From positions 256,001-320,000 of the forward strand of contig CP045477.1 of the NCBI GenBank assembly GCA_009392915.1: DNA of 64,000 nucleotides, read 5' to 3'. The notes under the pieces were generated by a model. It had not been told where the DNA came from. It searched no databases and was given only the letters and a program-made list of their open reading frames with translations. This DNA comes from Candidatus Forterrea multitransposorum CG_2015-17_Forterrea_25_41 (GTDB taxonomy: Archaea > Iainarchaeota > Iainarchaeia > Iainarchaeales > CSSED10-239). Made by a program: the position numbers and the translations under genes. Shown here piece after piece: positions 1 through 21,198 of this stretch (position 1 is its first letter; every line of letters begins with the position of its first letter).

Positions 1-2832
1 TCATTTGTAAGCATACCTGTTTCAGCTGAGTTAGGTGATGAAGCAAAAAGCCAAGTAGGAAATGTTTTAATTGAACAAGTATTTTTAGGTGGTGGAAAAC
101 TTCTAAATAAAGTCTTTGGACTAAACCCAATAGTTCACGGTGTCTTAGCAGGTGGTTTTTCTGCAATAAATACTTTTTCTCAACTTTCAAAAGTAGAAAT
201 TGATTTTTCCTTAGATAGAGATCAAGTAAACCTTTCTGAAGATAAAGAAGATTATTTTGAACCATATGATAATTACCTTTTAGATAATAAAATAGAACAA
301 GATGTAACTTTAAAAGACAACATGCTTTTAACTGATAAAAATATCTTAGATGCACAATTTATTGAAACAAAAAATTTATCTGAAATTGATAATGGAAGTA
401 ATTCTCCAAATTTTAGACTTGCAGATAAAACAAAACTTGTAAAAGTTTTAGATTCAAATAATCAAGCAGTATCTTTACAAAAAAGAGAAATATTATTTGA
501 AGATACAAATAAAACAATTGAAAACGAATATGAATATAGAACCTTTGTAGTTAAATATCCTAAATCAACATATACAGGAAAAGTAGATTATGATCTTGGT
601 TTTTCTGATCTTTTAGGATCATGGGCAAATCTTTTAGTTCCATTCTATAATGGTGCAAGTAATATTAAAATAAGTAAATTTTTAGATGGTTCTAATACAA
701 AACTTATAGAAAAAATAAATGAAGAAAAAAAAGAAGAAATACTTTTAGAACCTTTCAAATTAATATTTAATTCTTATGTTAGAGATTCACTTGAAAATGT
801 TGAAACAGACCAAGTTAACTGTGTTACTGAAGGTGGATTACTTTTAGGTCAAACAGGAACAGAAGCTCTTCCAAATATAGCTTTAGATTGGACTTATAAT
901 TCTTCAAATGCACAAACAATTTCAGGTATGAATGTTTCAAGACTTGATTGGTGTGATGCTGATTTAACTGGTGAAGAAAACAAAAACTCAATCTTTTGTG
1001 ATTCAACACAATTCTCAATTGAACTTTTAAATAAACTTGAAAAAATTCAAAACTTTGTAAAAGATAATAAAGCTTCATTTACATGTCCAACACCAGGTGT
1101 TACTCAAAGCTTAATTTCAGAAAATAACAATATAGGAATAACACAATTAAATTCAAGTTATGATTCTTCAATAATTTCTGTTGAATATCTACTTGAAGGA
1201 ACAATGAATTTAGATGATTTTAATATTGTTCCAGAAACATTAGGAAGTTTAGCTCTTACTCTTCTTAAAGACGGAGTAGAGGAAGATAGTAAAATAATAG
1301 AGTTTACTTTAGAAGACTTTATTGAAAATAAATTCTCAGGAACAGAAGAATTTGATGTTGGTTTTATTTTTGATGATGAAACTAATTTTAAAATAACTGC
1401 AATTTTAACTTTATCAGATCCATATAGTTCAGTTGATTCAAAATTAGATAATCTTTTAGAAAATGAATTTACTCCAAATTCAGAAACTTGTGATTTAGAA
1501 AAAACATCTCAAAATATAAATCTTTTCTCTAAGAATAAGAAAATAGATACTTCATTAGTAGAGTTTAGATCTTATTTAATGAAAGATGGATATTCTAATG
1601 ACTTTAAATCAGACTTTGATAGATATTATAGACATACAATAACAGCAGCTCCAGATATCTATAAAGATTATTATTATAAATATTTTACAACAGATAATTT
1701 TACTTTCCAATCATCCTTTGATTCAGAACCTGGAAGATTAATGCTTCAAGGTCCTGGAAGATACAATGTTTTATTAAAAGTAACATTTGATGATGAATGG
1801 AATTTATTTGATAAAACAACAGATGAAGTTACAGGAAAAGTTGAAGTTATTTTAACAAGAGAAATTGCACCTGAAAGAGATTCTCCTCTTTACTATATGC
1901 CATTTAATGGTCTTGTTGGAATTGATTCTGAAAATGCAAGACAAGGTTATGGTGTTGACTTTACAGGAGATGTTGTAACAGTTTCAAAACTTCAAACTAA
2001 TGAATATTTAAGAACAGAGCCTTTTACACAATCTAATACAGTTAACACAGTTTCTGTAAAAGAGTATGGTAAAAATCCAACTGACTTTTCTTTCTTAAAT
2101 AATGGACAAACAAGAGGAATGCTTCTTAATATTAATTTATCAAGTACAAAAACAAATCCAGAGCTTGTCTTTGTTCCATCAAGAGCAACTCCTGTTGCTT
2201 TAAAAGTTTCAAATCAAAATAATGATGCTTATGCTTTCTATAAGCTTGATATAGGAGCTCCTCAAGCTCAAGGTGGAGAACCTGCATTAACTCCTGGTAG
2301 TTTAGTTCCATGGACAGGTGTTGGAAATTGTCTTGACTTTACAGGAATTTCAATTTTAGAAACTTATAAAGGTAGACCAGACATACATGCAATTTCTTCA
2401 AAACTTGCACCTTCAACAACAAGTGACACTGTTTCATATGGTGTTGAATGGGAAGGAAGAAATATTACTAGAAGAGGAGATGTATTCTTAAGAACAGTCT
2501 TTTACACACCAAGTAATTTTAAAACAGGTGATGGTTTAAGTGTACTTACTTTAGATTCATATGATGATGCAGCAGCTTTCTATACATTAGGTCAAGAGAA
2601 TGCAAGTTCTGTTGAGCTTAGAAATGTTTTAGGAAACAATGCAGATATTAAATATATTAGTGAAATCTTTTCACTTGTAAACGAAAAGAAAGCATGTATT
2701 GATTATACAGCTAATAATTTAAAAATTTCATATAATCCAATAGCCGTATCAGAACCATTATTTGGTGGAGATTTATCTTCAGATTCTCAAAATGCTTGGG
2801 TTGAAAGTAAAGGCGGATGTATAATAAATTAA
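1..2832 (+). CDS. Giant surface protein paralog, 5'-truncated. Frame 1 is open from base 1, so the gene begins upstream of the window. It carries the shared C-terminal module (CxTxxG...AxPxIxLxW, YxMPFNG...QGYG, WTGVGxCxDFxG, LRTVFY, KxCI C-terminal tail).
   Basis: No stop codon in frame 1 between base 1 and the annotated Met at 322. Conserved motifs match ORF 2848..10248 and ORF 13134..19577 in the same order. Asn/Ser/Thr-rich extracellular-like composition. Confidence 0.8.
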   Translation, partial: SFVSIPVSAELGDEAKSQVGNVLIEQVFLGGGKLLNKVFGLNPIVHGVLAGGFSAINTFSQLSKVEIDFSLDRDQVNLSEDKEDYFEPYDNYLLDNKIEQDVTLKDNMLLTDKNILDAQFIETKNLSEIDNGSNSPNFRLADKTKLVKVLDSNNQAVSLQKREILFEDTNKTIENEYEYRTFVVKYPKSTYTGKVDYDLGFSDLLGSWANLLVPFYNGASNIKISKFLDGSNTKLIEKINEEKKEEILLEPFKLIFNSYVRDSLENVETDQVNCVTEGGLLLGQTGTEALPNIALDWTYNSSNAQTISGMNVSRLDWCDADLTGEENKNSIFCDSTQFSIELLNKLEKIQNFVKDNKASFTCPTPGVTQSLISENNNIGITQLNSSYDSSIISVEYLLEGTMNLDDFNIVPETLGSLALTLLKDGVEEDSKIIEFTLEDFIENKFSGTEEFDVGFIFDDETNFKITAILTLSDPYSSVDSKLDNLLENEFTPNSETCDLEKTSQNINLFSKNKKIDTSLVEFRSYLMKDGYSNDFKSDFDRYYRHTITAAPDIYKDYYYKYFTTDNFTFQSSFDSEPGRLMLQGPGRYNVLLKVTFDDEWNLFDKTTDEVTGKVEVILTREIAPERDSPLYYMPFNGLVGIDSENARQGYGVDFTGDVVTVSKLQTNEYLRTEPFTQSNTVNTVSVKEYGKNPTDFSFLNNGQTRGMLLNINLSSTKTNPELVFVPSRATPVALKVSNQNNDAYAFYKLDIGAPQAQGGEPALTPGSLVPWTGVGNCLDFTGISILETYKGRPDIHAISSKLAPSTTSDTVSYGVEWEGRNITRRGDVFLRTVFYTPSNFKTGDGLSVLTLDSYDDAAAFYTLGQENASSVELRNVLGNNADIKYISEIFSLVNEKKACIDYTANNLKISYNPIAVSEPLFGGDLSSDSQNAWVESKGGCIIN

Positions 2833-2847
2833 AAGAGGGATTAATTA

Positions 2848-5800
2848 ATGTCATTTAAAGATGCTTGGCAAAATTTTCTAACAAAGATAGACAACAGAAT
2901 ACCAATTAAAAAGATAACAGGCCCACTTGATAAAAAAAATCCCTTAACTTCTTTTTTTATTTTTCTTTTAATAATTTTAGTTGTTTTATACTTAATCTTT
3001 GGATCAAGTATAACACTAAATAATCAAAAACTAACTGAAGTTACAATAAGACTTGCAGATTCAGATAATAATATTTTAGATAATTTTGATTTTAAGATTA
3101 GAAATATATCTGATGGAATAACAAATAGTTATGTTACAAACTCATCAGGTTCTTTAACTTTAGAACTAGATTTAAATAAAAAATATTTATTAATTATTGA
3201 TTCTCCTAATTATGAACTTTTAGAAGAAGAAATTAATTTATCTTTAGATTCTTTAAATTTTATAGTTACTGTTTTAGATACTCCAATTAATTATTTAAAA
3301 ACAGTTTACTTTGAAGATGCATTAACTAATAGCTTAATTGAAGATTCTTTAAATGTTACAATTAGATGTGATAATGGAGAAATAATTACTCCAAATACTA
3401 TTGATACTCAATCTGGAAGTGTAGAAATTAATGTTCCTTTAGAATGTGAAAATATTTATGCATCTGTAAGAGGAGATAGGTATATTGAAGAAAATCTAGA
3501 GATGCCTATTACAGAAAGTACTTTCAAGCTTGAATCTATAACTGAAATATTAGAGAGTGGAAGAGTTTCTATTTCAGTATTTTCTGGAGAAGATATTATT
3601 CAAGATTCAATAACTATTAAAATATTTTCAGTTGATGATTCAATAACTCCAATTAATACTACACAAACAACAAATGGAATTGGTTTTTTTAATTCAATAC
3701 CAGTTGGTGAATATATTGTTAAAGCAAGTGATGTTTCAAATAGATATCTTCAAAAACAAGAACAAGTTACAATAATTAAAAACTCACTTTCTGAAATTAC
3801 ATTTGATTTAATAGATACAGATACAGACTCTCCTATAATAATTGATCCTGATACAAATCAAGAAATTGTTATAAGAGAAGTTACTGTTTTTGTAAAAGAT
3901 AAGGATTCAGGAGAAATTATAGATTCTTCTTTTGATCCTAGTGTTACTTTACTTTTAGATGGTAATGAAAATATTGAACAAAGAAACCTTAATGAAGGTT
4001 TTATTTTTAATATTTCAGAGGATAAATCATATTCTCTTAAAGCAACAGCAGAAGGTTATATTCCTGGAGAAATTATTCCAATAATTTCTGGTAAAAATAC
4101 ATATATTTTTAATTTAGAAAAAATAACAATAAGTAATGTTTCAAACCTTAATATTACTGTTCAAGATGAAGACTTAAAACCAATTGTTGGTTTAAAATCT
4201 TGGATATATGATAAAGATGGACAATATATAGATCCTAGATTTGATTTTTCAACATCTGATGAAAATGGAAATATTGTTTTTGAAAATATTCCTGATCTTA
4301 ATTTTACAATAAAAGTTAAAAATAGTTTTATTGAAGAGACTTCTTCAATGTATCATAATTCTCCACCAGAAGATACTAACATAACATTACCTGTAGAGAT
4401 TGGTACTGGTACAGTTAATTTAACTGTTAAAAATAAATTAAATGATATTGTTTCAAATGCACAAGTTACTTTTTATTCTGAAAGTTTAGAAGTTTTAGGT
4501 AGTTCTTTTGCATCTTCAAATGGAACTTTAGAAAATGATCTTAAAGCTGATAAAAGAATTTTTATAAAAATAGAAGCTGATGGTTATCTTCCTTACTTTA
4601 CAGAGCTTTTTAGAATTTATAAAAATAAAACAGTTACAAAAGAAATTATTCTTGAAAGAGAAAATTTATCAGATGATGTTTCTGTTGAGTTTTTAGGACT
4701 TTATAATTCTTTAGATACTGAAGTTGAATCTTTAAAAAACAATGAAGTATTTTATTTTAAGTTTAAAGCAATCATGCCTGTTTCAAGTCAACATTTTAAT
4801 TTTGTATTTAGAGCAGGTTCTTTTACTTCAGTAACAGAAGATATTGTTTTTATAATGCCACAAAATACTTCTTTAGGTATTCCTGTTTATTATGAAAATG
4901 AGCCATTTAATGAATCAGGGAATTATTTAGAATCTAAGTTAGTTGATATTGAATTCTTAGGATATCCTGCTTCAGTTCATGAAATTACAATTCCTATAAG
5001 AATTAAAAATGCAGCTATTAATGAAAGAGTTTCTTTCTTTTATGATTCTTCAATAAATAATATTGACTTTATGTCAAATAATTTTAATCAATTACAATAT
5101 TTTATAGAAGCTACAAGTCTTTGTGGAGAAGATTTTTGTTTTTCAGGACAATATGTTGATGTTTCTCAAGACTTAAGATATGATATTTCTTCAAATAATT
5201 TAATTTCAACAAATATTCATTCAGATTATATTTTAGAATATCAAATTACAAATTCTTCTTCAAATAGTTTTGAAGATGTAAGACTTTCTACAAGAAATTT
5301 AAATAATGATGATAATCCAGTAGCTATGATTAACATTAATAGTTATTCAATTTCTGGAGAAGCAACTTCTGTTGGTCAAACAATTGAAGGAGAAAATAAT
5401 TTTAATATTCCTTTTACTGGTGATGAAATTAATTTAGAAAAAATTAATCCTTTTTCAAGTATTAATTATACTTTAAATGTAACTCCTTTAAATCTTGGAC
5501 AATCTAAACTTACAAATAGAATTATTTCTCTTCAAGAAGAAATCTATTCTCTTCCTATAAACTTTTCAGTTTCAGAACTTGAAACTATGGAAATTGATTA
5601 TGAACCTAAAAATATTGTTCCTGGACTTCCTTTTGATTTATTAGTAACTGTAAAAGATACTCAAGGAGAATATTTAGAAGGAGTAAATATTAATATTTTA
5701 CAAAAAGTTAGAAATGAGTATATTACTGTTTCAACAGGAAAAACAACTGATCCTCAAGGAAATGTAATAATAACTTTACCATCTTTAAGACCAGGAGAGA

Positions 5801-8800
5801 CTTTTGAAATACAAGCTATAAAGTCAAAATATTTTTCTCAGAATGTTTCTTTTACAATCGGAACTGATATTTTAGATGTTTATTCTCAAGAGCAAATATT
5901 ATCTTCTGAAAGTCCACTTGAAGTATTTATTCATAAAACAAATATTAATGGTGAAACTTATTCTTTAACTTTAAAAAACAAAACAAACTATGCTTTAAAA
6001 ATTAATCAATTTAATACTGAAGATTTTTCTTTTAATAAATCTTATTTACTTAATTTAGAGCAAACTGTTAATTATCTTAATAATCAAATAACTTCTCAAG
6101 CAGAAGGTTTTGTAATTCCTGCAAATGAATCTAAAGAAATTGTAATTAAGTTTGCCCCTTCAGATTCTGCAAGAACTCATCCTGTTTCAGAAGATATTTT
6201 AGGTGCAATTACAGGAAATTATTCTTTAAATAATTATGATTATCGTTTTACAATTCCTGTTAAAGCAAAATTTTCTGTTGGAAGTGGTGTTTTATTTGAT
6301 GATTGTTTAGTTGTAACTCAAAGTCCAGGAGAATGGAATACTGTTGTTTCTACAAGTACTCAAACAACTTCTTTTACAATAAAGAATACTTGTCTTTCAA
6401 AAGAAGGAGAAGTCCCAATACCTATTAAAAATGTACAAGCAAAGATATCTTCTCAAGCAGATAGATATGGTGTTTATTTCTTAAACCTTATAGGCCCATC
6501 TTCTTCAAATCAAATACAGTTGTCTGAAAATTACTATAGAGTTGTAATTGATCAAATGGCTCCTGAAGAAGAATATAGAGTTGATTTAACATTTAATACT
6601 AATGGTACAAGATTTGCAGATGTTAAAACAAATATACATCTTAATGCTCAAGTAGAAACTGAAGATGGTTTATCTTTTGTAAATAAAGAACCTAAAGATA
6701 TTTTCTTAAAAACAAATATTTCAATAATGAATCTTAATGATTGTTTTTCATATATTGATCAAAATGGAAAAGTAATTAATTCAGGTGGTCTTTATACTTT
6801 AGAAGGTATTGAAGAAAATGAATTAACTATTAGAAACAATTGTCAAGGAAAAGCTACTTTTAAAATGAATCTTTGTGATGCTTATGATTTAGGTTGTAAT
6901 GATTTAATTATTACAAATACAGATGAAGAAAATAATATTTTAAGATTTTCACTTAACGATTCTGAAAAAACAGTATATATTAAAAAAGATTCAACAAAAG
7001 CACCTGGTGCTTATATTCTTAATAACAGAGTCTCTGTTATAAATAATTTTGAAAGAGAACTTGCATCTTCTTTTGCTCTTTTAAAAATAAATGCAAAAGA
7101 TCCTAATGGTTTATGGATGGAAGATCCTTTTATAGAGATTAATGAAGATAAAGTTTCTGAGATTAAAAGATTATATAATAATAATTTAGAAAAGACTCCT
7201 TGGGATTATGCAAGTTATTATCAAGGAGAAGAAGGTTTTGGAAAATTTATAACAAATATTTATTATACAGGAAATACTTGGAAAAAATCTTTTAATCAAC
7301 ATTGGAGTAGATGTATAGCTGGAGATGATACTTGTTTATTTAACGGGGATAATTCTTTACTTTCAATGAGATTTTTACCAGAAAATCAATTAAGTAATGT
7401 TGGTGCAGAAGGATTAAGTGCAGGTGGTGCAATTGGGATAGGAATTGGTACTGCTGCAATTGTTTCATTAGTTTTAATTATGGCAAAAGTTGCTGTATTA
7501 GGAAGTCTTTTAGGACCTGTCGGTTGGATAGTTGCTGGACTTTCAATTGTTGTTGCATCAATAGCACCATCTTTCTTTTCAGATTATGATGTAGATGTGC
7601 AACCAAGGTTTTTGGATGTTTCTGAAAATAATACTATTGATAATTTAGTTGCTTTAAAAGAAATATCTGTAGATGATTTAAGTGATCAAAAAGAATTAAT
7701 TAATGTATTTGATATTACTGGTGCAAGATATTTTAAATATTTTAATAATGTTATTTTTGCACATGGAAAACTTGCTTCTAAAAAAGAAATTAAAAGTGTA
7801 CTTCCAAAATGTAATGGTATAAATAATTTAGTGCCTGTTGATCAATTTTTAAAAGTATATAATAAACCTCCATTTTGTGATGAAATAACTATAGAAGAAA
7901 CTGAAGATTCTTATATTTATAAAACAAGTTGTAATGGACAAAAATTAAATAGACTTGAATTAAATTTATTCTATAGTGCTTATTCAATATGTAAAAGTGA
8001 TGAAACATATTGGCCAGAACAAGCAGGTATAAAACCTTTACAGTTTAATTTAACTGATGAAATATATAATTTATTAGATAATGATTCTAAAAAATATTAT
8101 TTTAAAAAATATGAATTTAATCCAACTTTAGATGATTCAAATAGCACACAAGATTTAGCTTTTGTAGATTCAGATAGTGTAGGAAATTATAGATTTGGTT
8201 TCTTTTTAACAAAACCTGAAGAAACACCAAATTATGATCTTTCATTACAAGAATGTGTAACTGATACTGGAAGAACTGGAAAAACAGGAGAAGGTGCAGT
8301 TCCAAATATTTCTCTAAATTGGAATTGGGCTGAAACTGATTGTGCACAAACATATTGTGATGCAACTCAATTAACTCAAGATGTTTTAGATAGAATTAAT
8401 GATGCTGAAAAATTAATTTCATCAAATGTTGTTCAATGTCCTATAAGTAATCAAGAACTTTATGACCAAGCATTAAATGGTTCTTATAAAGTAACTGCAG
8501 AACCATCTGATGTTATTAATGAAATACCTGTTGGAAAAGTAGGTATTAATTCTGTAAAATTAGATTCTCAAAATAATAAATTAGCAATAAAAGTAGTTTT
8601 AGAAAACAGATCTGATACACCATCTTCAGGAACTATTGTTATTAGTCTTGATGATAAACAATTAGAATCTATAAAATACAGAGATGTAGCTTCAGGAGAA
8701 TATATTGAAGAAAATATAGATTATCCTGGATCTTATTCAAAAAGTATAACTGTTCCTTCTGGTATTGATAATACTAATGAAATAATTTTTGTTTATAAAG

Positions 8801-10248: not shown

Positions 10249-10321
10249 AAGTAATATATATAAATATATTGCTTAACTATATTTTATAGGTTTAATATAT
10301 ATATATTAGGTTAGTATAATT

Positions 10322-10684
10322 ATGAGAAGATACATTTATTTATTTTTAATCGTTTTCTTAGTTTTTCCATTTATTTCTGCACTTAGTTATGATAATGAAA
10401 TCTATGTAAACCCTTTTGTTTTTGGTGTAATTAGAGGGGATGATGGGGAAGTTATTTCAAATATTTCTGATGATGAAATAATAGATCCTGAAATGCAAGT
10501 TTCAAGTGCAAATGGGTTTACTAAAAAATCAGATCTTGATTTAACCATAAGAGAGAATCTTTTGATTTTTAAACTTCCTTCTTATCAAAAAACAAATAAT
10601 AATTCTTTAAATAAATATACTTTTATTTATAATACCTTTGATTATCCTTCAAAGAATGTAAATATTTTATTTAAATTAAATTGA
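10322..10684 (+). CDS. Small secreted protein (120 aa) with an N-terminal signal peptide. Function unknown.
   Basis: N-terminal segment MRRYIYLFLIVFLVFPFISALS followed by a hydrophilic mature part. Stop overlaps the start of the next ORF (ATGA-type coupling). Confidence 0.55.
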   Translation: MRRYIYLFLIVFLVFPFISALSYDNEIYVNPFVFGVIRGDDGEVISNISDDEIIDPEMQVSSANGFTKKSDLDLTIRENLLIFKLPSYQKTNNNSLNKYTFIYNTFDYPSKNVNILFKLN

Positions 10685-13110
10685 GAAAATATATGAGATA
10701 TTTAAAAAAAATTATTTTAACAGTAATATTAATTACTTTTATTTTACTAGTTCAATCATATGTGTTTTCAGCAAGTTGTAATTTAACTCCAAATCAAACT
10801 TCTCTTAGAACTCTTTCTTTAGGTTGTAGTGGTGATGCTTGTGATTTTGTTTTAATTAAAAGTGAAGATGTATCTTCTCAATATAATTCTTGTATTGATT
10901 CTTGTGATCCTGATAATTATCCTGAAAATTACAAAACTTGTATGACTGATTGTTATGATTCTTCAATTAATTCTACAACTGATATTTCATTAAACAGTTC
11001 TTTAAGTTTTTCAAAATCTTCTGAATGCTCTGATAAAGAAATAAATGTTTCTTTAGCAGCAGATATTAATTTTGAAATGTTAAATGAAACAACTTCTCTT
11101 TCAATTTCAGGTATTGATTCTTTAAATACTAATGGAAAAGATATTATAATTTTTGTAAACAATAATGATAAACTTGGAGATGCAACTTTTAGGTTTGATT
11201 TTAGTGATTTAATAATTTCTGATACTTCTAAAATAATTATGACAACAAAAGAAAGAACTTCAATTACAGATTCTATTAATGGTGGGTGGGATGATTGGAA
11301 AAGAGATGGTATTAAACTTTATTTTAATAATTTAGAAATATTAGAAAATGCATCACTTGATTTAAATATGTATATTCCTAAAAATATTTTTAATGTAATT
11401 GATGAAATAGATATGCCTAGAACTTCACTTGCAGGTGGTGAATTAACTTTTGATGGAAACTTAATAGTTAATAATGGTAATTTAAATATTTATCTAAAAG
11501 CACAAGATAGTCAAGATGGTAGAAATTATATAGATTCTGGAAATTGTTTTGATGATCCAGCTTCACAAGGTGGAACTGTTAAAGAGGCAGGGCACATATT
11601 TTTTAACTTAAATTATTTAGAGAATAATGGTTTACTTTTTTCTAAAATGTTATCTGGAAATGGTGGTATTGGAGGTAATGGATCAAAAGCTCAGGATGGA
11701 TGTCGTGGAGATCCTCCAGGTCATGGTGGTAGAGGGGGAAATGCAGGAGATATTTTTTTATATATTAATAATATAGATAATACTAGTAATATTGATTTTA
11801 ATTTAATTGCAGGAAATGCTGGTCCTGGTGGAGATACAGGTTTTGATGGTGGAAATTCTCGTGAAAATTTTGCTATTGGAGGTTCTGGTGGTAATGGAGG
11901 AAATATTTATTTTTGTAAACCAATTTGGAATTCTGGCTTTAGTTGTTTGATAAATAATTATAATTCATTAATAAATAAAGGTAATTTTAATTTAGTTGCA
12001 AATACTGGTTTTGGAAATAATGGTGGAAATAAGAATAATCATCCTGATGAAGGTAGAGCAGGAGATGGAGGAGATGGTGGTTCTTATTTATCAAGTTTAA
12101 CGTTTGATTTTATAAGAAACTCTGGAAATTTAAATATTGCTCTTGAAACAGGTTATGGTGGTTTTAAAGGAACTACTGATGGTGGTGAAGATGGTGTTGG
12201 TGGAAGAACTCCTAATTTTTTTATTAATTTCTTAGAAAATTCTTCTGAAAATTTAAATATATTTTTAAACAGTAAACATGAAATTGGTAATCTTGAATCA
12301 GATGTTATTATTGATAAATTACAAAATGGTAGTTATCTACCAAGTATGATATATACTGTTTTTACTGATTGGACTTTTACACCTAGTGAAGAGTGTGCAA
12401 TTAGTTGTCAATCTAAATTTGATTCTTGTTATCATTTGCCTTCAGCTTGTAATAGATTTTTAGATATGTGTTTATATACTTGTGATAAAACTACAGAAGA
12501 TCTTGAAACTGTTACACAAAATAGAAAAATAAAAATTAATGATGCATGTTATGTTAAACAACCATCAAGTGCTTTAGATTATATGACTGGATTTATATAT
12601 GTTAATTCTGCAAATAAAGATGTTTTTGAAAATCTTCTTCCAGAAAATGTTTCTTCTAATCTTACTAATAACTCAGAATGTGTAATCTGTGATTATTATG
12701 ATTTTGAAAATTTAAATGAAATATTTCCAACAGGTTCTGGAAATAAATTCTTTAAAAACTATACTTTATATTCTACAGTTCAAGGAAAAATTAATGCAGG
12801 AGATTTAGAAATACATTATGCTAAAAATGATCTATCTTTTACAAAAATAAATAAGCTTTATAATCCTTTTACAAAAGAAAATAATCTCCCACTTTATTCT
12901 AATAAACAAGATATAACAAGTAGTCAAGAACCTAATTCTCTAGGTTTGTATGAATATAATATAGATGCAAGTAATCTTGAATGGTATTATGATAAAGAAA
13001 TGGACTTATCAGAAAAAGATTTATATTGTTATAATCAAAATTATAGAATTGAAGGAAAAATAGGAACTAAGATTTTTAACTTCCCATTTACTCCATTATT
13101 TAAAAATTAA
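10681..13110 (+). CDS. Secreted Cys-rich, Gly-rich repeat protein (809 aa). It carries about 6 copies of an xNLNIxLxxG beta-strand-like motif, each followed by a GGxGG-type glycine stretch. The N- and C-terminal regions are Cys-rich.
   Basis: Signal-peptide-like N-terminus (ILTVILITFILLVQSYVFSASC). Internal repeats NGNLNIYLKAQD, NTSNIDFNLIAGNAGPGG, NKGNFNLVANTGFGNNGG, NSGNLNIALETGYGG, SSENLNIFLNS, separated by GGIGGNGS / GHGGRGGNAGD / GGSGGNGGN / GDGGDGG / GGEDGVGG stretches. Many Cys before aa 100 and after aa 550. Confidence 0.7.
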   Translation: MRKYMRYLKKIILTVILITFILLVQSYVFSASCNLTPNQTSLRTLSLGCSGDACDFVLIKSEDVSSQYNSCIDSCDPDNYPENYKTCMTDCYDSSINSTTDISLNSSLSFSKSSECSDKEINVSLAADINFEMLNETTSLSISGIDSLNTNGKDIIIFVNNNDKLGDATFRFDFSDLIISDTSKIIMTTKERTSITDSINGGWDDWKRDGIKLYFNNLEILENASLDLNMYIPKNIFNVIDEIDMPRTSLAGGELTFDGNLIVNNGNLNIYLKAQDSQDGRNYIDSGNCFDDPASQGGTVKEAGHIFFNLNYLENNGLLFSKMLSGNGGIGGNGSKAQDGCRGDPPGHGGRGGNAGDIFLYINNIDNTSNIDFNLIAGNAGPGGDTGFDGGNSRENFAIGGSGGNGGNIYFCKPIWNSGFSCLINNYNSLINKGNFNLVANTGFGNNGGNKNNHPDEGRAGDGGDGGSYLSSLTFDFIRNSGNLNIALETGYGGFKGTTDGGEDGVGGRTPNFFINFLENSSENLNIFLNSKHEIGNLESDVIIDKLQNGSYLPSMIYTVFTDWTFTPSEECAISCQSKFDSCYHLPSACNRFLDMCLYTCDKTTEDLETVTQNRKIKINDACYVKQPSSALDYMTGFIYVNSANKDVFENLLPENVSSNLTNNSECVICDYYDFENLNEIFPTGSGNKFFKNYTLYSTVQGKINAGDLEIHYAKNDLSFTKINKLYNPFTKENNLPLYSNKQDITSSQEPNSLGLYEYNIDASNLEWYYDKEMDLSEKDLYCYNQNYRIEGKIGTKIFNFPFTPLFKN

Positions 13111-13133
13111 TTTAAAAAAAGAGAAGAAAGAAT

Positions 13134-16100
13134 ATGTCAATATTTAAAAAATCAAGAGACAAAATAGAAGCAGAAAAGCTATATGCTCTTTTATCAGACA
13201 AAACTACAAACTATACTCTAGAGGATATTAAAGAGACTATTAAAAAACAAGGTTATTCTGATAAAGTTTCTTCAATTGTTGTAAAGATGATTACAGATAA
13301 TAAACTTCCTTTAAAAGATTCAGTTAATAAAACAAAAACAAAAGAAGAAGTCTTAAAAGAATTATCAGCTTCTGTTGATAAAAACTTCTCTAAACAAAAT
13401 CCAAAAGATTCTTCAAAAGATTCAAAAAAAGAAGATAAAAATAATCAAAAAGAAAATACAAAAAAACAAGAAGATATTAAAAAAGAAGATTCTAAAAAAC
13501 AAAAAGAAGATCTTAAAAAAACAAAAGAAACAAATTTAAAAAATATTAATAAAGTTCCTTTCTTTACAAAAGTAAAAACTTTCTTTAAAAGAATATATTT
13601 CTTTTTTGAAGATAATTACTATAAGATGGTTGATGGTGTAAGTAAAGTTATACCTCTAAACAAATTAACAGACAAAATAGATAAAGTTTTCCCAAGTTTC
13701 ATATTATTCTTATTAATCTTAGCTTTATTGATATATTTAATACTTTCAGGAAGTTTATCTTTCTCTAAAACTTGGACAGTTGCTGTAGAGGTTTATGACC
13801 CATCTTCTGTACCCTTAAAAGATGTTTCTGTAACTTTAATGCTTAAAGATGAAAATTTTTCAACTTTAAAAACAGATATTTTTGGTGAAGTTATTTTTAG
13901 TGATTTTAAATCTAGAAAACAAAATATTAATTTAATAGCTTCTAAAGATAATTATGATACAGTTGAACATTCCTTTAAATTAAGTAAAAGTAATTTAAGA
14001 CAAAAGTTATATCTTCCAACAGATGTAAATTCTAAGATTGATCCTTCAGAAGAAGAAGTAAGAGAAATTTCTTTTGTTGAAAATAATACTGTTTTAATAA
14101 CAGATTCTGTATTAACTACAAATTTTTCTTGTACTAATGCAGATGTAGAACCTAATCCTACAAGAAAAGTTATTTCTTCAGGAAAGGTAACAGTTACAAC
14201 TTATTCTGGTTGTGGTGCTTTAAGAGTTTCTGTAACTTCAGATGATTTTTCTTCAATTACAAATCAAGTTATAAATTCTTCAAATAAAGTAAATCTTACA
14301 AGAATTAATCTTGATAGAGGTAATTTAGGTTTCTCTGTTAAAAACATATCTGGAAGTTCAATTCCTGGAACAGAAGTTAAAGTTTATAGTTCTTCAAACA
14401 CTACTTTTCCTCATGATACAACCACAACTGATCTTTATGGTTTAGGTGAGTTTAGTTTAGAACCTAAAAGTTATTTTTTAACTTTCTCAAAAGAAGGTTA
14501 TCTAACAAATCCTTTAAAAGGTCCTTTAACTGTTATTAAAAATGATTCTGTAAACACAGATGTAGTTTTATTTACTTTAGATGATCTTTTAGAATTTGAT
14601 TGTTCTGATGATAAATATTCACAATTTTGTATTGCTGATGAAATTGATTGTTTTAATCCAAACTTAAAACCATTTTTAATAAATAATGCTGATGGTTCTT
14701 GTACAATTGGAAGACCAGGTTATATTTCTGTAACTTTAAAAGATGTTAATTCTGGAGAACCTGTATATGCAGATATAACTTTAGATTCAAAATTAAAAGA
14801 ATCTGATCAAAACTTTTCTCTTGGTGAACATATTGCAAGGGATACTAATTTCTATACTTTTAATGTTATTGATTTCTATAATTATAGAGTAAGAGTTTTA
14901 AATACAGAAGAGAGTGGTTATCTTCAACCAGATCCAGTCACTGTAAACGGTATTGATCAAAATATAACAGTTAATTTAGAATATTCTTCTTCCCTTAACT
15001 CAGGAGATATTTCAGTAAATGTTAAGAGTGCAGATATGCCTATCTCAAATGCAAGAGTTTATTTATATAAAGAGTTTGAAGATGATTTTGTTTTAGTAAA
15101 TTCTGATCCATTATTTACAAATCAAAATGGAGATGTTAATTTTTATTCTCAAAGAGCAAATAGAGATTATTATGCTTATGCTTTACATAATGTTTTAGAT
15201 AAACAAGGAACTTCACAAACAGATGATTTAGATGTTAACTCAATACTTGATTTATCAATAGATCTTGAAGATATTCCAAAGATATTAAATCTAAAGGTAA
15301 GTCCAAGTATTTCTTATGATATTAATTTTTATAATTCTTCAGATAATCTTGTAACTGAATATGTAAGAACAGATCTTGAAGATGGAAATTCTCTTTATTA
15401 TTTTACAGGTTCTATAAATAAAGTTTATGCAGTTGTTTCTTCTTCAGGTTATACTACCTATCAAACAGATTATATTACTTTAATACCTGATCAAGAAGTT
15501 TATAAAACAGTTAATCTTTCTACACTTTCTTCTTGTGAAGACTCTAAGTTAGAAATTTTAGGTCTTTATGATGGTTCTGGAGTTTTAGAAATTGATAATA
15601 TTGATTTTGTTGAAAATGATTTAGATAAAGAATACAGATTAAAGTTTAAATATATTTCATGTACAGAAGATGAAGAATACAATCAAGCTACTTTAAGACT
15701 TGGAAGACAAGGTTTAATAGATGATGAATATTTATTCTTTGTTTCAGATCAATTTACTTCTCAAGATATAGATGTTACAAGAGGTTATAAATTTTCACAA
15801 GAACATATACCTGACTTTAATTTTGATCTTTTCAATCTTAATTATTCTCAAGATAGATCTTATGATTATTCTGGTGAAGGTTATAAATGGATTGAAATTG
15901 ATTTTGAAAAATTAAATTCTGATATCTTAGAGTTTTCAACTAACTTTAAGTTCAGAGAAGATTCAATTGTTCCTTTTGAAAACTATGTTTTAAATTATAA
16001 ATCATTTGCAAGTATTTATGATGAACTTTATTCTTTTGATCCTGTTTTAAATGAATCTTGGACAGAGATACCAATCTATCCTAATGGTTATTTTTATGCA

Positions 16101-19100
16101 GAAACAAACAAATATTTAATACCTTTTGAAAATACAGATTATATTTATTCTGTAAAATTAAAAGACTGGAATCAAAATCTTTTAGAAGAATATGCTGGTG
16201 GTTATCCTGTATCTATTAATAATTTTTATAAATATGATCTAAGTTATTTATATTTAAATCAAACAGAAAGAAACGGTAGTGTTTTACAATCTTCTCAATA
16301 TACAAATAATAATTTAGATTATTTAAGTTATGGTTATACTTCATCTTTAGGTAACTCAAGTTCAGGAGATACTCAAAATGCTACAAATAACATGACTTCA
16401 TTTTTAATACTTCCAGATTATAATACTCTTCCAGGTTCAACAGATACTACTATAAATCAAGAAATCTATTATCATATTAATGTTGATGATTATAATTATT
16501 CTTTAGATGATATTAATGCAGAGATTGGTTATTATTTAAATACTTATACTCTTTTAGAGCCAAAAGGTTTTTTTGAAAATACTAATTTTTCAGATTCAAG
16601 TATTATTTCTGATGTTTTAGATGAGTACCCTTTAGTTAATACAAGTATTTATTCTTATTTATCTGATGAAAATTTTATATTTAATATTTCAACTAACTTT
16701 TCAGGAAACAGAATAATTATTGGTGAAAATAATTTAGGTTTTAAAGTTTTAGATAATTATGGTTCTCCAGTTTCAAATGTTTTAATAAAGTATAAAGTTG
16801 ATGGTGATGAGCTTATAACTTTAGGGTCTACAAATGAACAAGGTATGCTTAGTGATCAAAATATTTTTATAAATCTTTCAGATATTGGAAAAAATATTAA
16901 TTTTGTATTTTTGTTTTCTCCAGAGTTTGGTTTCCTTGCAAACACAGTTGTAAGAAACAAAGAAATCTATTCTGGATTTTCAATAGTTCCAGAAGATATT
17001 AATTTATCTGCAAGTTATTATATTTTAAATGATCAAGTTATAATTGATCAAGTTTCTACAAATAATTATAATCTTTTAAAAGAAACAAATTATTCAAGCA
17101 CTTTAGAAGAAATTGATTTTGTTGGAGAATCAAGTTTGTTTAATCTTGATTCTATTAAAAATAAAATGATTGAAGATAATAATCTTGTAAAAGATTTATT
17201 AGAAGGAGAAAATGAAATTATTACAAGTCTTTTCTTAAACAATAATATTTCTCAATCAACAAATCTTTTAGGTTATTATAGAAATGAAATTGATATTAAT
17301 AATTCTTTAACACAATTATTAGATATTAATTCAAATGTTGAAATTATTAATCTAGGTTCAATTAACTATGATTTTAATCTTGAAAAACATTTTATGAAAG
17401 GACTATTAATTGAAAACAATAATGTTTCTCTTGAGCTTATAAAAGAAATAAACGAATTAATTACTTTAGATTTAAATCTTTTATCAGATAACTCTCAAGC
17501 AACATTTGATAGTATTTCTGTAGAGCTTCCTGAATTTTTAGATCTTGAAGAATTTAATGAAGGTTATTCTTCTTTAGTTGGAGAGTCTTTAACTTCTGAT
17601 GGTTTAATAATTCCTCTTAACTTTAAGATTAATAACTCCTATTCAGGTTCTCTTCCAACTCCAAAGGAAGATATTAATTTAACTTTTAATGTTTATCTTG
17701 ATGATAAATTAGTTTCTTTTAATAAAATAATTTCAATAAAAGTATATTCTAAAGATGACATCTTTTTAATAGAGTCTGAAGGAGACTTACAGATCTATTG
17801 TACTGTTGAAAATTGTTCTCAAAAAAAATCTTTTACTTTTAAAAAATTAGTTAATAATTATATATTAAATCTAAATAAAGAAATTGAAATCAATGAGATG
17901 GATTTAATTGAAGTTTCAAATCTTTTAAGTAATATTAATTTTATTGACCTTTCTGAAAAGAACAGAGCTTTATCTTTTAGTGCCCTATATAATTCTGTTA
18001 ACGAAGAAAATAAACAAGGTAATTTTGATTTAATTTTTAATATTAATATTTTAAATGATTCTTTTAATATAGAAATACCTATTGATTATTTAATTATAAA
18101 ATATTTAGAAGAAGAAACCATAAGTGAAATTACTTTTAATTCCTGTATTGGTGTTGGTGGTCAAGAAAGCAGTAGTGATTTATTTATTTTAGGTTATTGT
18201 CAAGATACCCAAGATACTTGTAAAACAGGAGAATCTGCTGTTCCAAAAGTATTTTTTAATTGGGCAGAATCTGACCTTTCAACAGATTATGACGGAAAAA
18301 CCTGGAATAATGTCTGTATTGGTAATAGCCAAGATACAATGTCAAGTAAATATGCTTGTGATTCCTTACAAATGTTAATTTCAATTTTTAATAAAATTGA
18401 TAATGGTGTAGAAGAATCATTCTATATTAAACTTTTAAATGATGGAATTTCTGATGCTCTTTTAAAAGATTTTATAAATTATAATACACTTTACTTAGGT
18501 TATGATAAACCTAGTGAAGAGATCTTTTCAGAAGATGCAGTTGATGATGGTTTATTTAAAATAACAATTAATAATTCTCCAGAAATTAAAATTTTCCAAC
18601 CTGGTATCTATAAAGTTTTAGTATATGGTGATGATTCAGGAAATGCATATATGGGAAGAGAAGAAGATCAAATGATAGATATACGTCTAGAAAAGGTAAG
18701 TGATCTTCCTGCATCAGAGATAAGTGTATTCCACTATATGCCATTTAATGGTAATTTAGGTTTAGATGGTACAAGAGAGGGTTACGGTATTAAAAATCAA
18801 GATAGTGATGTTGCTCAATTAACTCAAGATGTTGATATTAATTATATTGATGTTATAGATGAAATAATTCAACTATCTTTAACTAATAATAATCTAGAAA
18901 CTTCTCACTTAACACAAACATTAAAGTCTGAAGGAAAAATACTTGAATTAAATAAATATGATAGTGTTGTTGAAATGATTTATTCTCCTTCATATCCAGT
19001 ACCAATATATTCTCATGTAGCATGTATTGATAAAGATGATTTTAGTTATAATCTTTATGAAAATAATAATGCTTTAGATAATATTATAGGTGGATCATTT

Positions 19101-19577
19101 ATTGATTGGAATTTTAATAATACCATAAGATCAGATGTTAAAACAACAGTAACAGGAGATGTTACTAGATACGTATTTAACAATAATAATTTAGAAGGTT
19201 CTTTAAACCTTAATTCAATGTTATATCTTCCTGTAAAATTAAATATTGATTCTTTAAAACTTAAAACCACAGAGTTTGCAAATAATAAAAATACAACTTT
19301 ATTTACAAAGAATAATTTTACAGGTGTAAATCAAGCAGATTTAGTTTTCTCTGAAGATGATTATGTTCTTGGAAATGATTTAATAAACCTTAATACTATT
19401 AAAGGTTTATTTAATTTTATAAGTCAAGAAAAAGCATGTATTGAAAAATCTATTGATAACACAACTATTAAATGGATTGATGAAAAAGTTAATTTTACAG
19501 AACAAGAATTACTTGATATAAATAGTAATATTCCTTCTGATTATTCTTGTCTTGAAGGAGAGGTAATCATAGATTAA
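13134..19577 (+). CDS. Giant (2147 aa) membrane-anchored surface protein. A ~185-aa Lys/Glu-rich N-terminal region precedes a single TM; beta-sandwich repeats and the shared C-terminal module follow.
   Basis: ORF begins 23 nt after the previous gene. KE-rich low-complexity N-terminus. TM segment FPSFILFLLILALLIYLILSG. Repeats of the ...KEGYLTNP / ...DxxGxVxF type. C-terminal motifs GYCQDTQDTCKTGESAVPKVFFNW, FHYMPFNGNLGLDGTREGYGI, EKACIEKSIDN. The true start could instead be the internal Met just before the TM (MVDGVSKV...). Confidence 0.8.
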   Translation: MSIFKKSRDKIEAEKLYALLSDKTTNYTLEDIKETIKKQGYSDKVSSIVVKMITDNKLPLKDSVNKTKTKEEVLKELSASVDKNFSKQNPKDSSKDSKKEDKNNQKENTKKQEDIKKEDSKKQKEDLKKTKETNLKNINKVPFFTKVKTFFKRIYFFFEDNYYKMVDGVSKVIPLNKLTDKIDKVFPSFILFLLILALLIYLILSGSLSFSKTWTVAVEVYDPSSVPLKDVSVTLMLKDENFSTLKTDIFGEVIFSDFKSRKQNINLIASKDNYDTVEHSFKLSKSNLRQKLYLPTDVNSKIDPSEEEVREISFVENNTVLITDSVLTTNFSCTNADVEPNPTRKVISSGKVTVTTYSGCGALRVSVTSDDFSSITNQVINSSNKVNLTRINLDRGNLGFSVKNISGSSIPGTEVKVYSSSNTTFPHDTTTTDLYGLGEFSLEPKSYFLTFSKEGYLTNPLKGPLTVIKNDSVNTDVVLFTLDDLLEFDCSDDKYSQFCIADEIDCFNPNLKPFLINNADGSCTIGRPGYISVTLKDVNSGEPVYADITLDSKLKESDQNFSLGEHIARDTNFYTFNVIDFYNYRVRVLNTEESGYLQPDPVTVNGIDQNITVNLEYSSSLNSGDISVNVKSADMPISNARVYLYKEFEDDFVLVNSDPLFTNQNGDVNFYSQRANRDYYAYALHNVLDKQGTSQTDDLDVNSILDLSIDLEDIPKILNLKVSPSISYDINFYNSSDNLVTEYVRTDLEDGNSLYYFTGSINKVYAVVSSSGYTTYQTDYITLIPDQEVYKTVNLSTLSSCEDSKLEILGLYDGSGVLEIDNIDFVENDLDKEYRLKFKYISCTEDEEYNQATLRLGRQGLIDDEYLFFVSDQFTSQDIDVTRGYKFSQEHIPDFNFDLFNLNYSQDRSYDYSGEGYKWIEIDFEKLNSDILEFSTNFKFREDSIVPFENYVLNYKSFASIYDELYSFDPVLNESWTEIPIYPNGYFYAETNKYLIPFENTDYIYSVKLKDWNQNLLEEYAGGYPVSINNFYKYDLSYLYLNQTERNGSVLQSSQYTNNNLDYLSYGYTSSLGNSSSGDTQNATNNMTSFLILPDYNTLPGSTDTTINQEIYYHINVDDYNYSLDDINAEIGYYLNTYTLLEPKGFFENTNFSDSSIISDVLDEYPLVNTSIYSYLSDENFIFNISTNFSGNRIIIGENNLGFKVLDNYGSPVSNVLIKYKVDGDELITLGSTNEQGMLSDQNIFINLSDIGKNINFVFLFSPEFGFLANTVVRNKEIYSGFSIVPEDINLSASYYILNDQVIIDQVSTNNYNLLKETNYSSTLEEIDFVGESSLFNLDSIKNKMIEDNNLVKDLLEGENEIITSLFLNNNISQSTNLLGYYRNEIDINNSLTQLLDINSNVEIINLGSINYDFNLEKHFMKGLLIENNNVSLELIKEINELITLDLNLLSDNSQATFDSISVELPEFLDLEEFNEGYSSLVGESLTSDGLIIPLNFKINNSYSGSLPTPKEDINLTFNVYLDDKLVSFNKIISIKVYSKDDIFLIESEGDLQIYCTVENCSQKKSFTFKKLVNNYILNLNKEIEINEMDLIEVSNLLSNINFIDLSEKNRALSFSALYNSVNEENKQGNFDLIFNINILNDSFNIEIPIDYLIIKYLEEETISEITFNSCIGVGGQESSSDLFILGYCQDTQDTCKTGESAVPKVFFNWAESDLSTDYDGKTWNNVCIGNSQDTMSSKYACDSLQMLISIFNKIDNGVEESFYIKLLNDGISDALLKDFINYNTLYLGYDKPSEEIFSEDAVDDGLFKITINNSPEIKIFQPGIYKVLVYGDDSGNAYMGREEDQMIDIRLEKVSDLPASEISVFHYMPFNGNLGLDGTREGYGIKNQDSDVAQLTQDVDINYIDVIDEIIQLSLTNNNLETSHLTQTLKSEGKILELNKYDSVVEMIYSPSYPVPIYSHVACIDKDDFSYNLYENNNALDNIIGGSFIDWNFNNTIRSDVKTTVTGDVTRYVFNNNNLEGSLNLNSMLYLPVKLNIDSLKLKTTEFANNKNTTLFTKNNFTGVNQADLVFSEDDYVLGNDLINLNTIKGLFNFISQEKACIEKSIDNTTIKWIDEKVNFTEQELLDINSNIPSDYSCLEGEVIID

Positions 19578-19579
19578 AT

Positions 19580-19951
19580 ATGAGTAATATTTTTTTAAAT
19601 TTTTTAAATGATTTTGATTTAATCTTACAGTTATTTTTAATTCTTACAATCATTGCATTTATCAGAAGAAGAGTAACTCACAATACATTAGCTCTTTTTT
19701 TAATAAGTGTAACAGTTATTGCTATGATCTTTTTATTCTGGCCTGTCTTTAAAATTGGATATATTTTCTATATTCTTTTGTCAGTTGGAGTTGCAGGAAT
19801 ATTTGTTGATTTCTTCTTTATTAGTGCTGGTGGTTCTGCAGAAGAGATGATGGGTAAAAAAATGGAGACTCATGGAACTCCTGGAGCAACTGAACATGCT
19901 GCAAGAAATCAATTAGTTAAAAAAATGGGTGGAAGACCTCCTGGAAGATGA
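19580..19951 (+). CDS. Small polytopic membrane protein (123 aa, about 3 TM) with a basic soluble C-terminus.
   Basis: Starts 3 nt after the giant ORF stop. Hydrophobic helices LILQLFLILTIIAFI, LALFLISVTVIAMIFLFWPVF, IGYIFYILLSVGVAGIFVDFFFI. Confidence 0.5.
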   Translation: MSNIFLNFLNDFDLILQLFLILTIIAFIRRRVTHNTLALFLISVTVIAMIFLFWPVFKIGYIFYILLSVGVAGIFVDFFFISAGGSAEEMMGKKMETHGTPGATEHAARNQLVKKMGGRPPGR

Positions 19952-20306
19952 ATTAAAAATGAATAGTAATAAAGGTTTTTTTGGTGGTATTCCTTTAATT
20001 GCAAAGATATTAGTAGTGTCTGTTATTGCAATTTTGATTGTTCCTGGGGCAATGGCAATTTTTCCTTGGGTTAAGTATGTTATAATGGGTTTAATTGTTT
20101 TTTTTATTTATGAAAACGCAGCACAGGCTTTTGGTGAAAAAAATATTCTTACCTTTATTGTGACTGGTATTTTAGCTTATTTTTTAGTTTATAAATATTT
20201 ATTTCTTACAAGTGCTATAATGATGGCATATTTATTTTTAGGCTTTGGTTTAGTTTCTGTTTTCTTTTGGGGAACTTCTACTCTTTCCAGAAAAGGCAAA
20301 AAATAA
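19929..20306 (+). CDS. Small polytopic membrane protein (125 aa, about 3-4 TM).
   Basis: Overlaps the previous ORF by 23 nt in another frame. Hydrophobic helices IAKILVVSVIAILIVPGAMAIFPW, VIMGLIVFFIY, ILTFIVTGILAYFLVY, MMAYLFLGFGLVSVFFWG. Lys-rich C-terminus. Confidence 0.5.
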   Translation: MEDLLEDELKMNSNKGFFGGIPLIAKILVVSVIAILIVPGAMAIFPWVKYVIMGLIVFFIYENAAQAFGEKNILTFIVTGILAYFLVYKYLFLTSAIMMAYLFLGFGLVSVFFWGTSTLSRKGKK

Positions 20307-20314: not shown

Positions 20315-20388
20315 GGATCTATGGTGTAGCCTGGATAGCACGTAGGCTTGCGGAGCCTAAAACTTGGGTTCAAATCCCAATAGATCCG
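20315..20388 (+). tRNA. tRNA-Arg (anticodon GCG), 74 nt, no encoded CCA.
   Basis: Hand-folded cloverleaf. Acceptor GGATCTA/TAGATCC with discriminator G. D-stem GTGT/GCAC. Anticodon stem TAGGC/GCCTA with loop TTGCGGA. T-arm TTGGG-TTCAAAT-CCCAA. Confidence 0.7.
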
Positions 20389-20777: not shown

Positions 20778-20815
20778 ATCTCTTTTTTTTTCTTTTTCTT
20801 TTTTTTATAATTTTT
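20765..20815 (+). terminator. Hairpin plus oligo-T terminator immediately after the HU gene.
   Basis: AGAGAGAT-TATAA-ATCTCT stem-loop overlaps the stop codon, followed by TTTTTTTTTCTTTTTCTTTTTTTT. Confidence 0.55.
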
Positions 20816-20912
20816 TAAAAAATCTATTTTTTAATAATCCCACTACTTCTTTTAAAACCTTTGTATCATAATTATGTTATACAATTAATATAAAAAAGGA
20901 GCAAAGATATAT

Positions 20913-21189: not shown

Positions 21190-21198
21190 ACTTATAAT

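Follow-up and report, generated by a model that had tools for sequence, protein, structure and literature searches.

What is built by the run of large, unannotated genes that opens a 64,000-nucleotide stretch of the genome of Candidatus Forterrea multitransposorum (contig CP045477.1, positions 256,001 to 320,000; the whole of this stretch is referred to below as the window)? The Iainarchaeota, to which this organism is assigned, are uncultured, and it is debated whether they are free-living or depend on a host. The seven genes g1 to g7 at the 5' end of the window are interpreted here, with a probability of roughly 0.55, as part of an extracellular apparatus of several components for adhesion or contact, which may at the same time be the main cell coat. 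Firmly supported by sequence analysis is the more general prediction of an extracellular, membrane-anchored, multi-protein surface structure, encoded by what appears to be a chromosomal, operon-like locus. A cell-surface location had already been proposed in an initial annotation made from the DNA letters, and signal anchors and signal peptides, arrays of immunoglobulin (Ig)-like domains, conserved cysteines and an acidic composition rich in Asn, Ser and Thr all agree with it. The source organism is an archaeon, since the window encodes a split RpoB and an ATP-dependent DNA ligase; the GC content of about 25% throughout the locus fits the AT-rich archaeon described at that time. The features of the locus within the window are the following.

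g1, 1..2832 (+): last 943 codons of a 964-residue secreted protein, the open reading frame (ORF) being open at the window edge
C-terminal head module of g1, 1543..2829 (+): about 410–430 residues, from the family alignment and the 614-cluster family
g2, 2848..10248 (+): 2466-residue giant with cytoplasmic anchor motif, transmembrane (TM) helix, Ig-like/CarboxypepD_reg array, hydrophobic hairpin, Cys neck and head module
strain-variable mid cassette of g2, 6988..8997 (+): residues 1381–2050, containing the Gly-rich hydrophobic hairpin and the neck motif TGKTGEGAVPNISLNW
internal Gly-rich hydrophobic hairpin of g2, nt 7456–7563 (+): residues 1537–1572, from hydrophobicity
head module of g2, 9040..10245 (+): from BLASTP, alignment and hidden Markov model family
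g3, 10322..10684 (+): 120-residue secreted protein with Sec signal peptide
g4, 10693..13110 (+): 805-residue secreted Cys- and Gly-rich protein
beta-helix region and strain-variable cassette of g4, 11293..12492 (+): residues 201–600
g5, 13134..19577 (+): 2147-residue giant with Lys-rich cytoplasmic N-terminus, anchor motif and TM helix, Ig-like array, short neck and head module
variable stretch before the neck of g5, 17484..18233 (+): residues 1451–1700
head module of g5, nt 18366–19574 (+): the shared module
g6, 19580..19951 (+): 123-residue small membrane protein, type A
g7, 19959..20306 (+): 115-residue small membrane protein, type B
tRNA-Arg(GCG), 20315..20388 (+): 3' boundary of the locus, 8 nt past g7
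downstream of tRNA-Arg: the HU gene (20508–20777), tRNA-His, the histidyl-tRNA synthetase gene (HisRS) and then further housekeeping genes

The ORF listing places the seven genes tightly spaced on the plus strand at the positions given initially, and the gaps of 15, 73, 23 and 2 nt (g1/g2, g2/g3, g4/g5 and g5/g6) were verified. The -4 and -23 nt overlaps claimed for g4 and g7 were not, as they stem from alternative starts judged unlikely (TTG 10681 for g4, GTG 19929 for g7); with the ATG starts that are both called and deposited (10693, giving 805 residues, and 19959, giving 115 residues) the gaps become +8 and +7 nt, and g6 and g7, polytopic as described, do not overlap. The same 805 residues are found in a 100%-identical NCBI protein, GW835_02495 (NCP79414.1), from an unclassified 'archaeon' metagenome-assembled genome (MAG). 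All seven products are deposited as 'hypothetical protein'. The 73-nt spacer between g2 and g3 (10249-10321) is extremely AT-rich with TATA-like runs, judging from which g3 to g7 may possess a separate promoter. The initial annotation had taken the locus to be 20 kb long and to start at the window edge, which turned out to be wrong. Window position 1 corresponds to position 7154 of L064, a locus sequence from the same genome, with 0 mismatches across 20,248 nt, and the array continues for about 24 kb upstream, the window carrying the last 20 kb of about 44 kb. The complete array reads p154–p111–v0–v1–u1–u2–g1–g2–g3–g4–g5–g6–g7 on one strand, u1 and u2 having been read on L064 and v1, v0, p111 and p154 from close relatives, and it accounts for roughly 5–6% of the genome, the largest contigs of which measure 0.66–0.84 Mb.

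How are the giants held at the cell? The upstream giants v0 (2681–2696 residues), u1 (2323 residues) and u2 (1867 residues) open, like g2 and g5, with a common short cytoplasmic motif (consensus of 66 family members y...EdkYY.lldKi...iPi.k..dpidk..PsFilfl), followed by a strongly hydrophobic TM helix (residues 33–51 in g2, 185–203 in g5) and then the first beta-sandwich. g5 carries an additional Lys-rich cytoplasmic extension of 140 residues, its cytoplasmic N-terminus spanning residues 1–184. As predicted from these features, v0, u1, u2, g2 and g5 are type-II signal-anchored proteins with a long Ig-like/transthyretin-like stalk outside the cell. Their extracellular part contains sandwiches of the CarboxypepD_reg/SpaA/Big_1/MG type above the Pfam cut-offs; for PF13620 (CarboxypepD_reg) g2 scores 53.5, g5 38.1, u1 71.2 and u2 62.8 bits at a gathering cut-off of 32.3, and a search of g1 with this family gave no match. 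A home-made repeat profile likewise detects three to five Ig-like repeats in each giant and none in g1. The initial picture of three membrane-anchored giants made of transthyretin- or carboxypeptidase-regulatory-like repeats therefore applies to g2 (2466 residues) and g5 (2147 residues) and not to g1, which at full length has 964 residues, lacks the repeats and has a signal peptide with no strong TM segment beyond it. The surface proteins are acidic (isoelectric point 4.35–4.8) and poor in Lys and Arg, and Asn, Ser and Thr together make up 25–28% of their residues as compared to 13–19% for the cytoplasmic proteins that the window encodes, confirming the richness in these residues noticed before. 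In u1, g1, g2 and g5 the chain ends in a Cys-rich neck (consensus C..TG.TG..A.P...L.W ... C....YCD.TQ) and a head module of about 410 residues. u2 resembles the others in its N-terminal two thirds alone (23% identity to residues 157–1392 of g2), and its tail is coiled-coil or low-complexity, unlike the ends of u1, g2 and g5. g2-type proteins contain the Gly-rich hydrophobic hairpin. About 36 of 82 family members, drawn from many clades, have a comparable hydrophobic segment that precedes the C-terminus by 720–1000 residues. Pfam scans detected no ATPase domain in v0, u1, u2, g1, g2, g5 or the adjacent genes, and scans with family libraries detected no VirB4/TraG, protease or pore-forming domain in any member.

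What then is g1? Its full-length form on L064 starts with a Sec-type signal peptide, MEKIKKNIKFLGIFLIMALMLSFVSIPVSA, which lies partly upstream of the window, and continues with a Cys-rich neck, an Ig/CARDB-like sandwich and the C-terminal module; in an AlphaFold2 model (mec0b9aac2e0f, mean pLDDT 73.6) residues 270 to 943 are confident. g1 matches g2 from the hairpin segment onward, the signal peptide replacing the hairpin, and the comparison shows it to be, at the level of sequence, a free secreted copy of neck and head alone. That g1, g2 and g5 end in a shared Cys-containing module, as first noticed by eye, is borne out by BLASTP (g1/g2 31% identity across 417 residues; pairs with g5 22–25%) and by the common motifs PGxY, PFNGxxG, R(Q/E)GYG and WTGxG..DF.G together with a conserved Cys near the C-terminus. 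The module has no match in Pfam, NCBIfam or PHROG, its g1-family profile found nothing meaningful among PDB sequences, and there is no convincing fold match. It is nevertheless a large family: among 1.84 billion cluster representatives, exhaustively searched with HMMER, 614 proteins matched, 528 of them at E<1e-10 and 276 at E<1e-30, most of which are about 1000 or 2000–3100 residues long, and in the best 150 of the 614 matches the module stands at the C-terminal end. A word-index search with the C-terminal 967 residues of g2 had yielded a single 51% match and missed the protein's own cluster, so that negatives of this search are unreliable for low-complexity AT-rich proteins. Nearly all invariant positions of the head are occupied by Gly, Pro, Cys or aromatic residues, which make no obvious catalytic set, and we therefore see the head as a probable structural or binding domain rather than an enzyme. 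A polymorphic-toxin interpretation was also considered and dismissed, as these proteins are conserved at the C-terminus and not variable there.

The accessory proteins are of several kinds. g3 and g4 carry Sec-type signal peptides, in agreement with the secreted proteins listed initially, and g3 has in addition a conserved YVNPFVFGVI(R/K)GDDG motif. g4 consists of an N-terminal Cys-rich domain, a right-handed beta-helix, a Cys-rich spacer and a conserved C-terminal domain. The helix superposes structurally on solved right-handed beta-helix (pectin-lyase-like) proteins and is tailspike-like, with unusual long Gly-rich loops (GNGGxGGxG), and a g4 profile run against PDB sequences gave only weak Obg matches, which reflect the Gly-rich repeats. 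Compared with EtpA, HMW1, UpaB, CsgA, phage tailspikes and PL6 lyases, g4 differs in these loops and in having no sequence similarity to them; neither a two-partner secretion (TPS) domain nor an autotransporter barrel was found in it by Pfam and PDB sequence searches, the organism being archaeal. g6 and g7 are paralogs with a common core of three TM helices, as seen in profile searches; g6 has a basic C-terminal tail and g7-type proteins have an extra N-terminal TM helix preceded by [KR]G in 12 of 12 sequences. On inspection this [KR]G recalls an archaeal class III (prepilin) cleavage site, though the g7 proteins are polytopic. A third, shorter type of g6/g7-like protein occurs in many other clades, and neither g6 nor g7 has a match in the family libraries or among PDB sequences. 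Further upstream, the 558-residue v1 shows by inspection a type-IV-pilin-like class III signal, KKG|F(N/T)LFTALISLxLLSITLVxIFNM, which is shared by 19 of 22 homologs. Of the remaining three, two have truncated N-termini, and P0187 has PRAFNLFTAL, devoid of the Gly. p111 is a membrane protein of 111 residues, rejected on comparison as a relative of g6/g7, and p154 is a protein of 154 residues with weak winged-helix matches. For g1, g3, g4, g6, g7, v1 and p111 nothing was found in Pfam, NCBIfam, PHROGs or PADLOC. A secretion ATPase of the T2SSE family (PilB/FlaI type) is encoded at window 60124-61521 (+), 40 kb downstream of the locus, with no recognised PilC-like or prepilin-peptidase gene beside it; it could conceivably serve v1.

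Which parts of the proteins vary between strains? The window was compared with L004, L067 and L068, all of which carry the locus and are 97–99.6% identical to the window across most of it. Identity drops in confined tracts: in g2 between nt 7000 and 9000 to 57–87% in L067 and L068, as compared to about 99% in the flanks; in g4 between nt 11000 and 12500 to 70–82%, as compared to 97–99%; and in g5 between nt 17500 and 18000 to about 90% in all three strains. For the mid cassette of g2 the nonsynonymous divergence (dN) is 0.43 and the synonymous divergence (dS) 0.39–0.46, the corresponding values being 0.008 and 0.056 for its Ig array and 0.004 and 0.025 for its head. The g4 helix has dN 0.25 and dS 0.40–0.58, the stretch before the g5 neck dN 0.07 and dS 0.17, and the g5 head, with few substitutions, has a dN/dS ratio of 0.87–1.67 as compared to 0.13 in the g5 Ig array. 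Because dS is elevated along with dN, the variable tracts are best explained as cassettes, divergent alleles brought in by recombination, and not as local bursts of mutation. In more distant orthologs, too, the Ig array and head are conserved and the hairpin/neck region is poorly conserved. Targets of a diversity-generating retroelement were considered and rejected: no template/variable repeat is present in window 1–21000, no reverse transcriptase was seen among the window ORFs scanned (which were not every ORF), and the tracts measure 0.5–2 kb and have high dS.

How widespread is the locus? With one genome taken per GTDB species, the head module was found at 55 loci labelled Iainarchaeum, 'ainarchaeum', Diapherotrites or unclassified archaeon, among them the single-cell genome of Ca. 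Iainarchaeum andersonii; the sole exception is L046, in a bin labelled Thaumarchaeota (label not checked). No viral contig with the module was found in IMG/VR, and INPHARED phages yielded no relatives. Relatives with g4 identities of 75%, 46%, 37% and 33% retain the order g1–g2–g3–g4–g5–g6–g7–(tRNA)–HU–HisRS, so that conserved synteny, one of the checks proposed at the outset, is seen even at 33–46% g4 identity. At many loci across the phylum, two or three g6/g7-type genes come after a tandem of two or three giants (L016, L018, L026, L027, which is I. andersonii, L028, L032, L036 and L062), and HisRS or the alanyl-tRNA synthetase gene (AlaRS) still adjoins the giants in distant clades. In a neighbour-joining tree of the head modules the g1-, g2- and g5-type sequences form separate orthologous clades; the duplications are therefore old and each paralog has been retained, a pattern that suits a hetero-oligomeric structure or divided roles better than a recent expansion. 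Altogether the locus appears to be phylum-wide, vertically inherited and ancestral to the Iainarchaeota. The ORFs, whose integrity in relatives was a further check, are mostly intact. Exceptions are g5 of L067 (12392-18743), split into 139 and 1949 residues, and a giant of L026 (4271-11261), split into 920 and 1385 residues; frameshifts or assembly errors may explain these splits, as may real truncation of the Lys-rich N-terminus. In L063 (3700-14100; MAG SRP178699_co2_64) v1, a head module and u2 are matched, and there are no long plus-strand ORFs across about 10 kb where u1 is expected, which could be due to frameshifts, poor assembly or a decayed copy.

How might such an apparatus be assembled? 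It could be imagined that the giants rise from the membrane as long stalks, fixed by their N-terminal anchors, and that their heads bind one another and the secreted g1 via the shared module, giving a hetero-oligomeric layer or fibril tip at the distal end. There g4, perhaps together with g3, would dock as a variable ligand-binding element, be it an adhesin or a glycan-binding protein, and g6 and g7 would serve as a platform in the membrane for holding or inserting the N-terminal anchors. Contact with other cells, surfaces or viruses would be made by the variable cassettes, and recombination would keep these diverse. Several points weigh against this model. All of its assembly steps are ones that we infer. 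g4 is present only in the sub-clade of the window and its sister (L010–L014), g3 in fewer loci still, and both are missing outside that clade; small membrane genes related to g6/g7 lie beside the giants in 15 of 39 evaluable loci and are missing in the other 24, which include whole clades with one or two giants directly beside HisRS or AlaRS. The evidence thus does not support a fixed machine of seven parts, and the seven genes do not constitute a unit as the initial annotation had assumed, the more so as three further giants and a pilin-like gene belong to the array upstream. Moreover, the internal hairpin of g2 could mean a topology other than the one assumed, and N-glycosylation sequons are two to four times denser in the surface proteins, yet no more so than composition predicts. 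To our knowledge no host is known for any of the Iainarchaeota, and attachment to a host, which we infer as a possible function, has the strain-variable cassettes as its sole, indirect support.

Could the giants instead be the S-layer or cell-coat proteins of the Iainarchaeota, forming a TM-anchored canopy with g1 as a lattice partner and with cassettes that vary to escape coat-binding viruses and have no part in interaction with a host? This main rival is distinctly less probable than an adhesion or contact apparatus. The family occurs throughout the phylum, is inherited vertically and has a location like that of housekeeping genes, and like the archaeal S-layer proteins (SlaA/SlaB, halobacterial Ig-like proteins, MSTP/DUF1608) the giants are extracellular, acidic, rich in Asn, Ser and Thr and in beta-sandwiches, and encoded by core chromosomal genes. 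Ig-like S-layer proteins are moreover described as extremely divergent between phyla (bioRxiv 10.1101/2024.05.28.596244), and the 64-kb window holds no other S-layer candidate, although the search covered this window and a conventional S-layer gene may sit elsewhere in the genome. However, the check for S-layer homology found no match to known S-layer families (e.g., DUF1608/MSTP, SlaA, halobacterial) in Pfam, NCBIfam or the PDB-sequence profile search, four to six paralogs of 2000–2700 residues greatly exceed the usual S-layer complement of one or two proteins, anchoring is by the N-terminus and not by a C-terminal TM helix or a stalk partner, and the other DPANN phyla mentioned in the preprint use MSTP-like sandwich S-layer proteins (bioRxiv 10.1101/2024.05.28.596244). 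At the opposite end, an integrated mobile element or provirus beside tRNA-Arg, its large genes encoding tail-fibre- or tailspike-like proteins, is highly improbable. It would account for the locus stopping 8 nt before a tRNA gene, for the tailspike-like beta-helix of g4 and for the strain-variable cassettes; but the locus does not stand out from the remaining window in GC content or strand bias, searches for an integrase, a capsid, a terminase or any PHROG family gave no match, the searches of IMG/VR and INPHARED phages gave no relatives, all four compared strains carry the locus, and it occupies the same chromosomal site beside HU, tRNA and HisRS down to 33% identity, with a paralog tree of old orthologous groups. 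With no viral genes, no viral relatives and conserved synteny, this explanation is effectively excluded.

A further idea is that of an episymbiont device for host attachment and membrane penetration, in which the stalks reach the host and hairpin and head insert into or bridge its membrane; in function it would resemble what has been proposed for the giant proteins of nanohaloarchaea. Giant Cys-rich surface proteins have been proposed as host-interaction factors in other DPANN (PMC6792436; PMC10266531), the genome is small (contigs of 0.66–0.84 Mb), and the internal hydrophobic segment recurs across clades in about 36 of 82 members, with hypervariable sequence. Against this stand the lack of any ATPase, VirB4/TraG, protease or pore-forming domain in the members scanned, the low confidence of the hairpin region in the model, a hairpin that may only give the protein a second hold in the membrane of its own cell, and the want of a known host; penetration of a host is thus unlikely. 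Quite unlikely, too, is a related and bolder proposal, a hitherto unknown kind of archaeal cell–cell contact machine that works without an ATPase, with an Ig-like arm, a hypervariable hairpin and conserved disulfide-bonded head inserting into or bridging the membrane of another cell, g1 as a free copy, g6/g7 as the base and v1 and g4 as specificity elements. The nearest parallels are the nanohaloarchaeal SPEARE giants (SVXNc_0300, BNXNv_0298), single proteins of 8,900–9,400 residues that include a VirB4/TraG-like ATPase domain and are encoded beside an AAA+ ATPase, for which a role in contact with other cells was proposed (PMC10266531). Common to both are a tiny DPANN genome, a large coding share devoted to membrane-anchored extracellular proteins and tandem Ig-like/fibronectin-like domains. 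In contrast to SPEARE, there are here four to six separate paralogs of 1,900–2,700 residues with no ATPase domain, with a family-specific C-terminal module and an N-terminal anchor motif, and no sequence homology was detected. Similarly, the groundwater DPANN archaeon Ca. Huberarchaeum crystalense has large Cys-rich membrane-anchored surface proteins with a suggested role in host interaction (PMC6792436). Compared by description, these resemble the giants in being large, extracellular, membrane-anchored and Cys-containing, whereas the head-module family was recovered solely from Iainarchaeota-type genomes. In overall design, with one end fixed at the cell, an Ig-like beta-sandwich extender and distal C-terminal modules for ligand binding (a function proposed here), the giants are also reminiscent of bacterial RTX adhesins. 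The latter (LapA, SiiE, MpIBP) are exported by type I secretion, have RTX repeats and a type I secretion signal and are retained in the outer membrane. The locus has neither RTX repeats nor such a signal, and its proteins belong to a single-membrane archaeon and use an N-terminal signal anchor.

The surroundings of the locus hold some further observations. The HU gene (window 20508-20777, +) encodes a bacterial-type protein (PF00216, E 3.6e-30) and lies directly downstream of the locus in the sub-clade of the window, as seen in L002, L004, L007, L067 and L068, down to a g4 identity of 33%. Between HU and tRNA-His, a gene for a 448-residue serpin is present in L004 (20252-21598) and L068 (20199-21545) and missing in the window (20778-21199) and in L067. 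Two genes past HisRS, after a 208-residue ORF with no Pfam match, the window encodes an EgtD-like histidine-specific S-adenosylmethionine methyltransferase (23437-24375, +; PF10017, E 7.5e-31), which in L067 follows HisRS directly. Further along there is a protein resembling 1-deoxy-D-xylulose 5-phosphate (DXP) reductoisomerase (48477-49604, +; PF02670, E 4e-15), an enzyme of the methylerythritol phosphate pathway that is not expected in archaea. At 50900-54583 (+) two adjacent half-size genes of the MMPL family precede a gene for a 416-residue CARDB/DUF11 protein, and these may be another small envelope or export module. GC content falls to about 19–20% at window 58001-64000, as compared to about 25% elsewhere.

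What does the locus mean for the Iainarchaeota? Giant surface proteins are already recognised in DPANN; the protein families found here are undescribed. The initial view that this is not a described system is upheld by the hypothetical annotations, by the want of Pfam, NCBIfam, PHROG or PADLOC models for its members and by a literature search in which no description of the locus was found. It is built almost wholly from unannotated families, namely the head of about 410 residues, the anchor motif, g6/g7, g3, g4 and v1, several of which could be deposited as new domain families, e.g., in Pfam. If the proposal of a contact machine without an ATPase were true, it would parallel the suspected conduits of other DPANN, and the Iainarchaeota would then be episymbionts. 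The recombining cassettes may serve as a marker for interaction specificity at the strain level, towards viruses or hosts, and the locus as a whole gives concrete targets for learning what the surface of the Iainarchaeota looks like and what it touches.

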